A stretch of DNA of 37,921 nucleotides from a virus. The translations under genes were made by a program, and so were the position numbers. The stretch lies in the UHGV virus genome UHGV-0081762. One strand, written 5' to 3'. Each line of letters begins with the position of its first letter. Position 1 is the first letter of the stretch. This document shows positions 2,512 to 8,225 of this stretch, in pieces. Under the pieces are notes generated by a model. The model had not been told where the DNA came from, searched no databases, and was given only the letters and a program-made list of their open reading frames with translations.

Positions 2512-2832
2512 TTAGTCATTGATATTCACCTTTATCGCGAACACCTTTACCGGTTTATCTCCGAAGTGTGGATGTGTGATTGTCTTCACTTCATATCCGC
2601 CATACGGGACGTCAATTCTGCGACTGGAATCGTCGCGCTTCGGATATCCCTTTGTGATAATCAGGCGGTCATACTCGCGGAACATAATTCGCTTATTCCA
2701 GTAGTCATTAAACAGGCGATACTCTTCCGTTTTCTCTCCGCGAATCATGGCATCGAAGTATTCACCTTTAACGGCAAGTTGCAGGTTAGCCACGGTTAAC
2801 CTCCTGAGGCGGTTCTGCTGCAAAATACGCAA
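2512..2832 (-). CDS. ASCH/DUF3850-like domain protein
   Basis: 106-aa ORF with GEYFDAMIRGEKTEEYR...REYD pattern resembling ASCH/PUA-like fold proteins common in phages (from memory). Confidence 0.45.
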   Translation of the reverse strand: MRILQQNRLRRLTVANLQLAVKGEYFDAMIRGEKTEEYRLFNDYWNKRIMFREYDRLIITKGYPKRDDSSRRIDVPYGGYEVKTITHPHFGDKPVKVFAIKVNIND

Positions 2833-3691
2833 TACCTTTATCCCAGATGGATTTTATGGTCGTCCACGTGACTGGTACTTTAATTTCAATCCGCCCGCTA
2901 CCGTCACAGGTATCGCAATCATCATCGCCAAAGCATTCCGGGCAGCTGATAAACGTAGTTTCTGAAAATTCACCGGATAGCGCACCCTTAGCGCCGTTCT
3001 CGGCTGTTAGTCTCTTCGGCACCACGACCCAACCATCCGGAGTTACCGGAGAGTTGCCATTTACATCGAAGTTTGGCTCTGCGTCCTGAACCAGGAGGAT
3101 GTAACCATTCTTGGCAGTATCAAGTTCTAACGCCTCGGTGACGGTGCCGAAATAGCGATTGCCTAAATCAGCATCACAAGTGCTTACATCAATGGAAACT
3201 TCCATGCCCTCGATTAATTCTGGCAAGTTGTAAGTTTGGCTTACAGGTTCGGCACCATGAAGCATGGCGTCGCTCCGCTCTATGCCATCCAGCGCGATTC
3301 GCAGTGCCTGAATTGTGGTAATGCTATCGTTTGGGGCTATTCCATATCGCTCGAATACAGCGATATGACCGCGCATAATCTCAGGCGTAAGCTCTTTGTA
3401 AGCATAAGCAAGCGACCCTGATGCATCATCCGGCACAACCGACGCAGGCGCGGCAGCATAAACAGGAATAACGTCCGCTTGCTCTTTATTGCTTTCATCC
3501 GTTAAAGCCCAGAATAATTTCCCGGCCGGATGTTTGAAAATATAAGCAACTGGTTCTGCTTCCAGCGATGCCAGAGCAATTCGTGCCAGTTCTTCCGCTT
3601 CTTCTGCTGGCAGTACAACGTTGCTACCCGGTCCGTATGTTTCGCGCCACTGATTGATTGTCAGTAGTCGATCTTTGGCAATAGTGGTCAT
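2786..3691 (-). CDS. Hypothetical 301-aa protein with C-terminal Cys-rich zinc-ribbon-like motif
   Basis: Long ORF; C-terminal CPECFGDDDCDTCDGSGRIEI motif. Confidence 0.55.
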   Translation of the reverse strand: MTTIAKDRLLTINQWRETYGPGSNVVLPAEEAEELARIALASLEAEPVAYIFKHPAGKLFWALTDESNKEQADVIPVYAAAPASVVPDDASGSLAYAYKELTPEIMRGHIAVFERYGIAPNDSITTIQALRIALDGIERSDAMLHGAEPVSQTYNLPELIEGMEVSIDVSTCDADLGNRYFGTVTEALELDTAKNGYILLVQDAEPNFDVNGNSPVTPDGWVVVPKRLTAENGAKGALSGEFSETTFISCPECFGDDDCDTCDGSGRIEIKVPVTWTTIKSIWDKGIAYFAAEPPQEVNRG

Positions 3692-4203
3692 GCCGCGTTT
3701 CCTTCTTTCTTATTAACAATTACACCGTCATATATTTCATTAAGGTGCCCTCTCAACTCCATACGCCTTAATGCAGATAACATGTAATCGCATTCAACCT
3801 GCTTATTTCCAGTAAATGGCTTATCGTCAGGATTACCCCAACAGCAATTACCCTTGGGCCACCCATGTACTTTCCGTACTCTTCCGTTAACAACGTGAAG
3901 TAATCCCCAGCCAGGTGGTAAATCCTCAATTGAAATAATTCCCGGCTCACTAATAAAGAATCGCCAGTCGCCCATTCCAAGAGACGGATTTTTACGAAAA
4001 CGCTTTTTTCTATCTGCCAACAAGTCAGCACGAGAACATTTCGCCTCTATCAGGCATGATGCTGAATTTCTGAATCCCATAGCATCTGGCTGTTCTCCGG
4101 TACTGGTTACAGCTATAAAGCGGTCATGAAAACAAACCTTGAACCCGTTGCGCTTAAGGAACTTGTACGCAATCTGACAGAGTTCGCGGTGTGTTAACGC
4201 CAT
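3688..4203 (-). CDS. Putative PD-(D/E)xK nuclease-fold protein (MmcB-like)
   Basis: ORF with D...EAK motif (DAMGFRNSASCLIEAKCSRAD); start placed at MALTH with strong AAGGAG RBS; longest ORF extends to 4275. Confidence 0.45.
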   Translation of the reverse strand: MALTHRELCQIAYKFLKRNGFKVCFHDRFIAVTSTGEQPDAMGFRNSASCLIEAKCSRADLLADRKKRFRKNPSLGMGDWRFFISEPGIISIEDLPPGWGLLHVVNGRVRKVHGWPKGNCCWGNPDDKPFTGNKQVECDYMLSALRRMELRGHLNEIYDGVIVNKKEGNAA

Positions 4204-4204
4204 A

Positions 4205-4393
4205 TCACTCTCCTTTAGTGCGCAAGTGGTTTTTCCAGCGGTTTTGCGCCGCGCTGGGCTTTTTGCAAAAACCACAATCCATCATCCCGTAATATTTCAT
4301 CAACCCCATCCGTCGGTTGCTGAGTCTCACCCACTGCCAGACGCCAGGAGCGTTTCTACGAACTAACAGAATCTTTGCTTTACGGTTTTTCAT
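4205..4393 (-). CDS. Small basic protein, paralog B (MKNRKAK...)
   Basis: 62-aa ORF; N-terminus and KKPSAAQNR segment paralogous to adjacent 58-aa ORF. Confidence 0.45.
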   Translation of the reverse strand: MKNRKAKILLVRRNAPGVWQWVRLSNRRMGLMKYYGMMDCGFCKKPSAAQNRWKNHLRTKGE

Positions 4394-4566
4394 CTTACAG
4401 CGTACCCTTTCTTCCGCCTGTTCTGTGACGCAGTAGGCTTACGCTTTGCGGCAAAAGCCACCTGACCAAATGGATGGAGTACCGCTATCTTATGGTTGCT
4501 AATAACCAGCTCCACCACACGCACAGGTCGCTGTAAAAAAAGTCGTTTTGCCTTACGGTTTTTCAT
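4390..4566 (-). CDS. Small basic protein, paralog A (MKNRKAK...)
   Basis: 58-aa ORF hand-translated from minus strand; AGGAGAG RBS; ATGA overlap with paralog B. Confidence 0.4.
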   Translation of the reverse strand: MKNRKAKRLFLQRPVRVVELVISNHKIAVLHPFGQVAFAAKRKPTASQNRRKKGYAVR

Positions 4567-4738: not shown

Positions 4739-5494
4739 CTACTCACCTCCGTTGATGCGAATGCCAGCGGCACGGGAATCATTCCATCGCTTTACTTCTT
4801 CACGAATTACGTCAATGCATTCTTTCGAATCCATTAGGTAATCTTCATCAAAAAGCCTTTCCTGTTCGTTTTCTATCGCAACAATGATTGCTTCAACTAA
4901 CTTTTGTGCCTGAGAACCACTTTCTAACTCTGCAATGCGCTTCTCTGCGGCTTCCAGCTTCTCGCGCATATCGTCAACGTACTCGACCAGAGATCCGCCA
5001 GCAGGAATTTCGCACTCCTCGACCAGTTGGAAGTAGATATCAGCTGCGGCCCGTGTGTTGCTATGCCTAGCGTCGCCCATCTCACCTTCACGAAGAGCAT
5101 CGCGTTCGGCGGTAAGATTGGCTATTTTGCTGTCTTTGCCTTCCAGCTCAACGCGAAGCCTCCCTACCGTTAGCGCAATTTCCTCGTTCTCCTGGTCACG
5201 GCGTTTGATGTATTGCTGGTTTCTTTCCAGTTCATCCAGTAATGCCGTCACGGTAGCTGGATTGGCTGCGGCGATGAATTCAGCATTGGCCTGCTGTTCT
5301 ATTTGGAAATCTTCATCGAAACCGCTTTCAGGATGCGCTCCTTCAATTCTGCAAATGGGAATATATCCAGCAACTTCACGATGAATTAGCGCATCATCAC
5401 CATCAAATCAGCTCTTTCCATATTCGAGCGACCACTCGCCACACGTTGCTTTTTCTGCCTTAGCACGCAGTGCCTGATAATCAATCTTGCTCAC
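4739..5494 (-). pseudogene. Ead/Ea22-like gene interrupted by in-frame TGA (N-terminal 28 codons, stop, then in-frame continuation; GTG at 5251 could restart)
   Basis: Minus-strand frame reads [28 protein letters not shown]-stop-FDGDDALIHREVAGY... continuing into the 170-aa ORF 4739-5251; coiled-coil Ea22-like C-terminus. Confidence 0.5.
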
Positions 5495-6856: not shown

Positions 6857-7345
6857 TTATTTGATAAGAAGTGAAGGTTTCCCAACTTTGAGTTGAGCAC
6901 CGGGGATATTTATTCCTGCTTTTAGTTGGTGTTTGATTGCCAACTTGTCGGCTTTAATTGTCGTTTCAAACTCAACGTATTCAGGAGGAAGGGCGCTTGA
7001 GTCGATGATTTCTACAGTTTCTGACGGTTTGCGGATTGTTACCTGGTGAATACCTGCTCTAATCTTTTTCTTGCCAACCATTTCAAGCGATGACGCTATA
7101 TACGCCATAATGCTATCAATCTTATTTTGAATTACTGCTGCTCGTTCATTTAGTGACTTTGCCTCTTCCTTGAGGCGTTCAGCATAACCAGATTCATTTT
7201 TAATAATGGCGAGAAGTTGCTCTATTTTATCGGTAAATTCTCCTTCCATGCCTTCTATTGTGTCAGCAATCATCTCTGGCTCTAAATCTGAATCCATCAA
7301 TTTTGCGTATTCATTGGCTATTTCATATAGTTTGCTCACTGGCAA
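6857..7345 (-). CDS. Siphovirus Gp157-like protein (recombination-associated)
   Basis: 162-aa ORF immediately downstream of recT; resembles Gp157 family as recalled. Confidence 0.45.
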   Translation of the reverse strand: MPVSKLYEIANEYAKLMDSDLEPEMIADTIEGMEGEFTDKIEQLLAIIKNESGYAERLKEEAKSLNERAAVIQNKIDSIMAYIASSLEMVGKKKIRAGIHQVTIRKPSETVEIIDSSALPPEYVEFETTIKADKLAIKHQLKAGINIPGAQLKVGKPSLLIK

Positions 7346-8225
7346 CCTCCAGTTTCGCTTTGCATTCTATGTAAATGGCTTGTACGTTCTGCTGCAATTT
7401 CATTCCAGATGTCAGGCGATATGCTTCTGCAAAATATCGCTTCAAATCATCCATGTTTTCTGCCTGAGCCATTTCATCACAAAGAAGTTGTGCTTTATCC
7501 ATTATTTCCTGCTGGCGTTTCCGTTCATCTTCGCGGATATCTTCCTCTGATTTGTGCGGCATAACTGGCTCCTGATGCATACCTTCATCTTCGTTAAGCA
7601 GGTGAATGGCATTATCCAGTCGCTGGGCTTTAGGCCAGTATTTGCTGGCGCGTTTAACTATTGTTTTACGTGCCATCTCTTCCCAGAATGTTTTCCACGG
7701 TCCATTCTTTGCCTTGCTCGTTGCTTCCACAGCTTTAATTTCTGCCAGACTCATTTCTTCAGTCAGGTAGTCACCATCTGCTGTTTTAACCGTGCAATAA
7801 CCACCAACAATAGAGCCTCGCTCACCAAATGCGTTGTATTTGTGGGTTGGTGCTGAATCAAGGCCATTTGATTCATAGGTGTCGTTTGAGTACACCAGTT
7901 TGCATTGCCCCCACTTAATTGAACCTGTCGATTGCGCAAGGTGAAGTAATCCCATGTAACTGATATCAAGGCACACCATGCCGTCGCGAGGAACCAGATA
8001 AGCCAGTTTGCTGGCCGGGTTTAAGGTGATGCCGATCGCCGCAACATTGATGATAGCGTTCTGTGCGCTGGTTGGATTTGCCAGTGCCGTTTTAGCCAGG
8101 TAATCATTTTTCTGGAAATACTGAATTGCAAACTGGCTTTCCTTAGCCCATGTCACCGTCTGTTCAGTCAATGCTCCGCAGAATAACTGCTCCTGCTGTT
8201 TAACGAATTCAACGATATTGCTCAT
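7323..8225 (-). CDS. recT: RecT-family single-strand annealing recombinase
   Basis: 300-aa ORF; position equivalent to bet/erf in early-left operon; sequence recalled as RecT-like. Confidence 0.75.
   Translation of the reverse strand: MSNIVEFVKQQEQLFCGALTEQTVTWAKESQFAIQYFQKNDYLAKTALANPTSAQNAIINVAAIGITLNPASKLAYLVPRDGMVCLDISYMGLLHLAQSTGSIKWGQCKLVYSNDTYESNGLDSAPTHKYNAFGERGSIVGGYCTVKTADGDYLTEEMSLAEIKAVEATSKAKNGPWKTFWEEMARKTIVKRASKYWPKAQRLDNAIHLLNEDEGMHQEPVMPHKSEEDIREDERKRQQEIMDKAQLLCDEMAQAENMDDLKRYFAEAYRLTSGMKLQQNVQAIYIECKAKLEVASEQTI

Follow-up and report, generated by a model that had tools for sequence, protein, structure and literature searches.

A five-module gene in the early-left region

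The UHGV virus genome UHGV-0081762 was analyzed as a single stretch of 37,921 nucleotides (referred to here as the window), and this work concerns one open reading frame (ORF) on its minus strand, at 2786..3691, that runs from an ATG start to a TAA stop and encodes a protein of 301 residues (exact protein P0001). The protein is acidic, with an isoelectric point (pI) of 4.3 and 48 aspartate and glutamate residues versus 22 lysine and arginine residues. The original prediction had singled out this ORF, leaving its strand unstated, as the largest in the accessory region; the frame indeed reads from 3691 down to 2786, and in the stretch between the integrase gene int (97-1257) and the RecT gene (7323-8225), both also on the minus strand, the next longest ORFs encode 200 and 195 residues. 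Comparison with relatives resolves the protein into five modules, A to E, and reveals clean module swaps among the sequences. As a combination of domains the protein is new, within a family that is known but uncharacterized, and its module E is an undescribed phage domain family.

The modules follow one another along the minus strand as beads on a string. Module A (residues 1-45, 3557..3691) is a helical N terminus that ends in the joint ...IALASLEAEPV and matches phrog_3323, phrog_660, and phrog_5117. Module B (residues 46-85, 3437..3556) is a 'PVAYIF...IPVYAAAP' mini-domain (phrog_6847), to which 'GEPVAW...PLY' modules in Pseudomonas relatives are analogous. Module C (residues 86-147, 3251..3436) is helical and ends in the joint ...AMLHGAEPV, and module D (residues 148-212, 3056..3250), with 13 aspartate and glutamate residues versus 2 lysine and arginine residues, is common to the C-terminal part of the P22-type EaA protein (eaA-2 of phage L). 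The linker NSPVTPDGW (residues 213-221, 3029..3055) is a shared joint that leads into module E (residues 222-293, 2813..3028), an autonomous domain, and the protein closes with the tail PPQEVNRG, which together with the stop codon occupies 2786..2812. This tail is kept behind differing C-terminal modules because the next gene's ribosome-binding site and start codon overlap it. We speculate that a similar overlap might account for the conserved '+GE' terminal tripeptide of Ea22 proteins (PMC7093339).

Several observations point to exchange of modules as units. Architecture and cysteine-pattern counts were made on 384 collected relatives, which display dozens of architectures (ADE, BCD with another C terminus, ABCE, E after 30-270 unrelated residues, and others); the order A-B-C-D-E occurs in only two of them. 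The joint peptides (...ALASLEAEPV..., ...AMLxGAEPVSQTY..., and ...GNSPVxPDGW...) are short and conserved, the linkers contain proline, alanine, serine, and glycine, and linker DNA is conserved even between unrelated flanking modules; the DNA of the D/E joint (GGCAACTCTCCGGTAACTCCGGATGGTTGGGT), for example, is nearly identical in such cases. After the GNSPVxPDGW joint, 170 proteins carry module E and approximately 64 carry a DUF551-type domain. Two GAACC(A/T)GT repeats lie within the gene, one at the A/B joint and the second at the end of module C, and a common 'ADE' variant of 197-199 residues is exactly what a deletion between them would give. Module E proteins of Pseudomonas also have the beads-on-a-string organization, with an 'IPDGYCLMP' joint. 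As for the N-terminal half, residues 1-78 are 94% identical in Upf89.5 of phage P7, and residues 47-78 (3457-3552) are 87-100% identical at the protein level in HK022 and in several ~145-kb lytic phages of Escherichia, Salmonella, and Serratia, which suggests that a mini-domain of about 32 residues within module B spread horizontally very recently. In phage L, eaA is split into two ORFs, and module D is what is annotated there as the C-terminal part of P22 EaA; for this reason, we count the ORF, on sequence grounds, as a mosaic member of the uncharacterized P22 EaA/DUF551-type family.

The family is common, whereas this particular combination is rare. Parts of the gene are present in 2,108 of 5,426 complete E. 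coli genomes (~39%) and in 369 phage records, so that the protein, which had been presented as an unknown, is uncharacterized but by no means isolated. In megablast searches, coverage of the gene fell short of 80% in every phage record and every complete E. coli genome record; by tblastn, only the two Klebsiella phage VLCpiS13b records reached it, at 49% identity. The exact protein is encoded on four metagenomic contigs, and one full-length copy with 95% identity also exists. In an exhaustive search of representatives, the best 150 matches were all at least 56% identical to the query, with about 800 weaker relatives beyond these.

Searches with the whole protein against Pfam, NCBIfam, PADLOC, and PDB sequences gave no significant match. 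A single-sequence search of PDB returned nothing at E <= 10, and the best PADLOC match, PDC-M01B (E = 0.048), spans 25 residues of the cysteine cluster and is at chance level. Matches to PHROGs are strong, with phrog_60 at E = 2e-59 over residues 1-300 and phrog_6847 over residues 44-147, and all of these families are labeled 'unknown function'. Searches of the literature for EaA, DUF551, and the LTAENGAK motif of module E returned no functional study, and no paper on the function of EaA was found there. Thus, the earlier statement that no function can be assigned to this protein is borne out, and clear homology to a characterized housekeeping phage protein did not appear in the searches run.

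The ORF is translationally coupled to both of its neighbors in a leftward early operon. Its ATG overlaps the stop codon of the upstream gene (3688..4203, minus strand; 171 residues from its own ATG; phrog_9263 and phrog_631, PHROG function unknown) in the sequence ATGA at 3688-3691. The downstream gene (2512..2793, minus strand; 93 residues; phrog_625, function unknown) has its AGGAGG Shine-Dalgarno sequence (2800-2805) and GTG start codon (2791-2793) within the last codons of the ORF, and the two genes overlap by 8 nucleotides (GTGGCTAA); in a metagenomic copy of the locus, gene calls are the same and the downstream gene is called at the same start. No minus-strand promoter-like site was found in or near the ORF, nor any internal to it, and strong minus-strand terminator-like hairpins occur only at ~1995-1945, where two of them follow each other in the interval from the ea cluster to the ORF at 1581-1925; this places the gene inside a long leftward early operon. 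The hairpins are probably where the leftward early transcript ends, upstream of xis and int. No RNA family in Rfam overlaps the locus.

The window is an E. coli P22-like podovirus. In agreement with the P22-like background assumed in the original prediction, it is 95-97% identical to CUS-3, Kapi1, and vB_EcoP-720R6 over 55-59% of a 24.9-kb query. A tRNA-Thr gene (anticodon CGT) at 7-82 on the plus strand immediately adjoins the integrase gene; it probably represents the attachment site of the prophage or a tRNA fragment, which would make the start of the window the prophage's left end.

Other genes in the region deserve brief mention. A separate ORF of 170 residues (4739-5251, minus strand) matches Pfam Ead_Ea22 with E = 1e-9 and, judging from this match, is the phage's Ea22-like gene, distinct from the 301-residue ORF. 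By eye, the upstream gene contains a PD-(D/E)xK-like motif (QPDAMGF...LIEAKCS), for which Pfam and NCBIfam give no supporting match. The downstream gene, which begins ...LAVKGEYFDAMIRGEKTEEYR, looks ASCH/DUF3850-like by eye, with no Pfam match at E <= 0.01; ASCH/DUF3850 domains are fused to module E in other genomes. Two small adjacent and overlapping minus-strand ORFs, at 4205-4393 and 4390-4566, encode basic proteins of 62 and 58 residues that both begin with MKNRKAK... and may be tandem paralogs in the same operon.

Module E and its cysteine cluster

As a domain, module E stands on its own, is under strong constraint, and is widespread. Used alone as a query, it retrieves many enteric proteins of 125-140 residues that carry it after short unrelated N termini. 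Most of the module is present in only about 19 of 50,697 phage records, including those of Salmonella phage ST64B (protein Sb31) and Klebsiella and Enterobacter phages, and it is 48% identical in a Serratia phage and in a Pseudomonas stutzeri phage. With a Pseudomonas phage copy as the query, 38 diverse relatives were found, many of them stand-alone proteins of 74-94 residues, and a scan of species-representative genomes detected the family in 59 genomes: those of Enterobacterales, many Pseudomonas, Burkholderiales, Alphaproteobacteria, Cellvibrionales, and a few Bacteroidota, Verrucomicrobiota, Planctomycetota, and Acidobacteriota. Its DNA is present in 190 of the 5,426 complete E. coli genomes. 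The module is usually C-terminal, in proteins of widely differing length; in gp47 of Pseudomonas phage pAN it is found at the N terminus.

Genes that encode module E are labeled inconsistently, as 'ead/Ea22-like', 'DUF550', or 'hypothetical' in E. coli and as 'molecular chaperone DnaJ' elsewhere. The latter name is found in RefSeq on A-D-E relatives of 197-199 residues (2958-3551 of L001; P0036, P0040, and P0043), which have no J domain, and it is probably a misannotation propagated from the CxxCxGxG knuckle described below.

Nine residues (L228, T229, N232, G233, A234, K235, G240, W276, and K280) are invariant in two family alignments, and they fall in the MPxxLTAENGAKxxLxGEF and VPWTTIKxIY segments. 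Among five phages and prophages, the ratio of nonsynonymous to synonymous substitution rates (dN/dS) in module E is 0.08-0.16, with dS of up to 1.5. The module is thus under strong purifying selection, and the ORF is a genuine protein-coding gene.

Structure prediction and a fold search, which had been proposed as a check, were carried out with AlphaFold2 and Foldseek. The full-length model, built from a 49-sequence mosaic alignment, had a mean predicted local distance difference test (pLDDT) score of 37.8; it was unusable and was therefore kept out of the fold search. Module E alone, with a diverse alignment (A3), gave a mean pLDDT of 87.4 and a predicted template modeling (pTM) score of 0.66. 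In this model, an extended N-terminal LTAENGAK segment and a short helix (~234-238) are predicted to pack against a beta-hairpin and a C-terminal helix (~276-290); the hairpin consists of beta-strands at ~243-249 and ~267-273, and the loop between them (~250-266) holds both CxxC pairs. Searched with Foldseek, the model had no significant match in PDB (best E = 2.5) and none at E <= 0.001 in BFVD, where the best match (E = 0.07) was to unnamed phage proteins of 63-81 residues.

The C-terminal CxxC...CxxC cluster, which gave the protein its initial description, is certainly present. Four of the five cysteines of the protein (C250, C253, C259, and C262; the fifth is C172) fall inside 13 residues, CPECFGDDDCDTC at residues 250-262, within the longer string CPECFGDDDCDTCDGSG at residues 250-266. 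This C250-x2-C253-x5-C259-x2-C262 cluster (2906..2944, minus strand) is presumed to form a single zinc site in the loop at the tip of the predicted hairpin. The pattern C-x-E-C-x-G-x3-C-x-T-C occurs in 277 of the 384 relatives, and the cysteine columns are invariant or nearly so in the two family alignments, so the cluster is not there by chance.

The original prediction had likened the cluster to DnaJ-type or zinc-ribbon motifs. The resemblance to DnaJ exists locally but is weak. Among Pfam families, the knuckles gave only sub-threshold matches to DnaJ_CXXCXGXG, Anti-TRAP, BSD2, and GRXCR, with Anti-TRAP at E = 0.67 for the 301-residue ORF and DnaJ_CXXCXGXG at a best E of 1e-4, in 7 of 64 family members; a module E profile searched against PDB sequences matched only the DnaJ cysteine-rich (CR) domain 1exk, at E = 0.11. 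As for a zinc ribbon, whose classical form has two beta-hairpin knuckles that each give a CxxC to one zinc ion, the model puts both CxxC pairs together in one loop, at the tip of a single hairpin, and no zinc-ribbon structure matched significantly in PDB; the predicted fold is not demonstrably that of a classical zinc ribbon.

The cysteines lie within a length-variable insert between the LTAENGAK and VPWTTIK segments. CxxC pairs are absent from four proteins (P0418, P0419, P0421, and P0422) whose homology to the module is significant, at E = 4e-7 to 2e-4, and other homologs have CxC or CGCxxCxxC arrangements. In Sb31 of Salmonella phage ST64B (1934-2767 of L007), the first cysteine is replaced by phenylalanine (FPEC...CESC), a natural three-cysteine variant that is consistent with a dispensable or degenerate putative zinc site. 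The cluster is therefore a facultative insert rather than the conserved heart of module E.

Possible roles of the protein

Hints of function come from the fusions and neighborhoods of relatives. Among 80 enteric module E proteins, five are fused to dATP/dGTP pyrophosphohydrolase, five to Ead_Ea22, two to DUF551, and two to ASCH/DUF3850. Beyond the enterics, 4 of 38 module E proteins, as well as P0402, have a Lar restriction-alleviation domain at the N terminus. One relative lies in an early-left region beside YqaJ, xis, and int. In another, a dATP/dGTP pyrophosphohydrolase gene is directly downstream of the module E gene, with an NT5C nucleotidase gene three genes further, and a third, in a nin-like region, has a DNA methyltransferase gene on its upstream side and, two genes downstream, a DUF551 gene (a faint Pfam match). 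These fusions and neighborhoods make an anti-defense or host-takeover role, as raised in the original prediction, plausible.

We tentatively favor, with confidence that stops a little short of even, a composite explanation, the architectural part of which is much more certain than the functional part: the ORF would encode a multi-module early protein of the EaA type in which a putatively zinc-braced module E binds a conserved target, the whole acting as a polyvalent host-interference or counter-defense factor. The linkers would serve as recombination joints at which modules are reshuffled. The four cysteines may bind one zinc ion that braces the hairpin, a structural role that would be dispensable, since some homologs do not have these cysteines. 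Residues T229, N232, K235, W276, and K280 would form a functional surface that binds a target conserved across Proteobacteria, and the other beads may act independently on other targets. The resulting small polyvalent protein would be non-essential for laboratory growth. A bolder version, in which module E would be a new inhibitor or sponge domain widespread among phages and EaA-type proteins would be combinatorial warhead arrays whose linkers evolved as recombination joints for rapid re-assortment of counter-defense or host-takeover modules, is doubtful.

Several findings weigh against the composite explanation. Fusion partners make up a minority of architectures, and several of them are themselves uncharacterized. 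Pfam and PADLOC are silent for the 301-residue protein, no homology to any characterized protein points to a specific activity, AlphaFold2 gave no confident structure for modules A to D, and the ea-region neighbors are labeled only 'unknown function' by Pfam, NCBIfam, and PHROGs. In addition, some stand-alone homologs are found in structural gene clusters, in moron-like positions, which an early host-interference role does not obviously fit. In one such case (4743-4973 of L010), a stand-alone module E gene for a protein of 76 residues lies between the gene for the large terminase (GpA_ATPase) and a 506-residue ORF, which we take to be the portal gene from its position and the Peptidase_S49 gene that follows; the 506-residue ORF has no Pfam match. 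This is the position of gpW in lambda, and it was unexpected for an 'early accessory' domain.

Of the other explanations, one makes the protein a developmental regulator that biases the lysis-lysogeny decision as Ea22 of lambda and Stx phages does, with module E as an interchangeable C-terminal domain. On the one hand, Ea22 proteins have a variable N terminus, a coiled coil, and swappable 'portable' C-terminal domains that include DUF551 (PMC10834534; PMC7093339), some module E proteins do carry the Ead_Ea22 coiled coil (P0163 is an example), and phage records label proteins with module E 'Ea22'. On the other hand, the C-terminal domain of lambda Ea22 alone fails to reproduce the phenotype (PMC10834534), and the Foldseek search of PDB gave nothing significant, in a library whose inclusion of the Ea22 C-terminal domain entry was unchecked. 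The narrower proposal that the ORF is a true Ea22 ortholog was rejected, because the Ead_Ea22 coiled coil is absent from it (no match at E <= 1) and is found instead in the separate Ead/Ea22-like ORF at 4739-5251. We consider the regulatory role unlikely.

Alternatively, module E might be mainly an oligomerization domain that multimerizes the upstream modules, with stand-alone forms assembling into rings or bundles that have a role of their own. A fold reduced to a hairpin and a helix is minimal and in many cases requires partners, and the pTM of the model is only 0.66 despite its high pLDDT. Module E is almost always terminal, the C-terminal domain of lambda Ea22 is dimeric (PMC10834534), and the top non-significant PDB matches were to a small-terminase oligomerization domain. 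However, these matches have E >= 2.5 and template modeling scores of ~0.35, and oligomerization poorly explains why polar residues are invariant from Enterobacterales to a few non-proteobacterial genomes, or why so many stand-alone genes exist. Such a role is improbable.

The invariant lysines, asparagine, threonine, and tryptophan in an otherwise acidic domain could also suit binding of a small molecule, such as a nucleotide or signaling nucleotide, with module E as a sponge or sensor alongside nucleotide-metabolizing modules. The fusions to dATP/dGTP pyrophosphohydrolase and the relative with that gene directly downstream and a 5'-nucleotidase gene further on agree with this; however, the proposal is drawn from residue types, and module E matched neither known sponge families nor a nucleotide-binding fold. 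We regard it as distinctly improbable.

The NCBI name 'molecular chaperone DnaJ' of the relatives of 197-199 residues would make the protein a DnaJ-like zinc-finger co-chaperone, which is very unlikely. The second knuckle does fit CxxCxGxG (CDTCDGSG), and there are the weak matches to the DnaJ CR domain, Anti-TRAP, and BSD2; however, all of these are below curated thresholds, there would be one zinc site versus two, and the cysteine insert is dispensable in homologs, where the conserved core lies outside it. Identity as a DnaJ/Hsp40 protein was rejected, given no Pfam DnaJ or PF00684 match, no 'HPD', and only two CxxC pairs, so that the tests for the J domain, HPD, and PF00684 have already largely refuted this explanation. 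Finally, a nucleic-acid-binding zinc-ribbon regulator (a transcription factor or RNA-acting protein) is hardly credible: DNA- and RNA-binding zinc ribbons commonly have CxxC...CxxC motifs and the gene lies in an early regulatory region, but the acidity of every module (pI 4.05-4.9) speaks for binding of proteins or ligands rather than of nucleic acids, the knuckle tip is poly-aspartate, and neither a helix-turn-helix or zinc-ribbon family match nor a fold match was found, on which grounds a DNA-binding zinc ribbon was rejected.

Lambdoid and P22-like phages have been studied very thoroughly, and their early-left accessory (ea) genes rank among the parts that are understood least. The analysis corrects the 'DnaJ' label and defines module boundaries, so that each module can be expressed separately. 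Phage genomicists may find little surprise here overall; nevertheless, at about 76 residues, module E is tractable: it combines a confident predicted fold, strong constraint, and a wide distribution in phages with no significant PDB or BFVD match, and it is a compact and testable candidate phage effector domain. If it is true that module E is an inhibitor or ligand binder, the mosaic build of these proteins would illustrate how temperate phages re-assort small effector domains within one gene.

Comparison with known systems

The DnaJ CR domain, Anti-TRAP, and BSD2 share a local cysteine-knuckle motif with module E, whose knuckles are predicted to lie at the tip of a beta-hairpin. The DnaJ CR domain (PF00684) has four CxxCxGxG repeats and two zinc centers, whereas the ORF has two CxxC pairs, only the second of which fits CxxCxGxG, and one potential zinc site; in the module E family, moreover, the knuckles are optional. 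Lar/Ral proteins (PF14354) are small early-left prophage proteins of the zinc-ribbon type. The ORF has no Lar domain and module E does not match PF14354; in Pseudomonas prophage proteins, Lar is fused to the N-terminal side of module E.

Polyvalent proteins of mobile elements (phages and conjugative elements; Iyer et al. 2017, PMC5512222) combine several small domains in one polypeptide in a combinatorial manner, as do the five modules of the ORF. The ORF is much smaller, and none of its modules is a recognized counter-defense domain, whereas Lar and dATP/dGTP pyrophosphohydrolase are found fused to module E in its relatives. DUF551, DUF550, Ea22, and lambdoid phages are not mentioned in that work (PMC5512222).

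Ea22 of lambda and Stx phages (Ead_Ea22, PF13935) is, like the ORF, an early-left protein with interchangeable C-terminal domains, and it is non-essential. It differs in its coiled-coil Ead_Ea22 domain, which the ORF does not have, and module E has no fold similarity to any solved structure searched. DUF551 (PF04448) has no match in the ORF, whereas close relatives such as P0010 have DUF551 after the same linker, in the place of module E.

The closest comparison is with the P22-type EaA proteins (phage L eaA-1/eaA-2; PHROG 60). The EaA of phage L ends in a DUF551-like domain, in place of which the ORF has modules B and C and the cysteine-containing module E; by eye, eaA-1 of phage L looks DUF550/MazG-like. 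The two agree in the following: both lie in the early-left 'ea' region near xis and int, with the same gene order in phage L, and both have an MTTITKE-type N terminus and the ...ALASL.AEPV and ...GNSPVxPxGW joints. Module D of the ORF is 78% identical to eaA-2 of phage L, and both the PHROG 60 match and the location of the ORF are those of a P22-type EaA.

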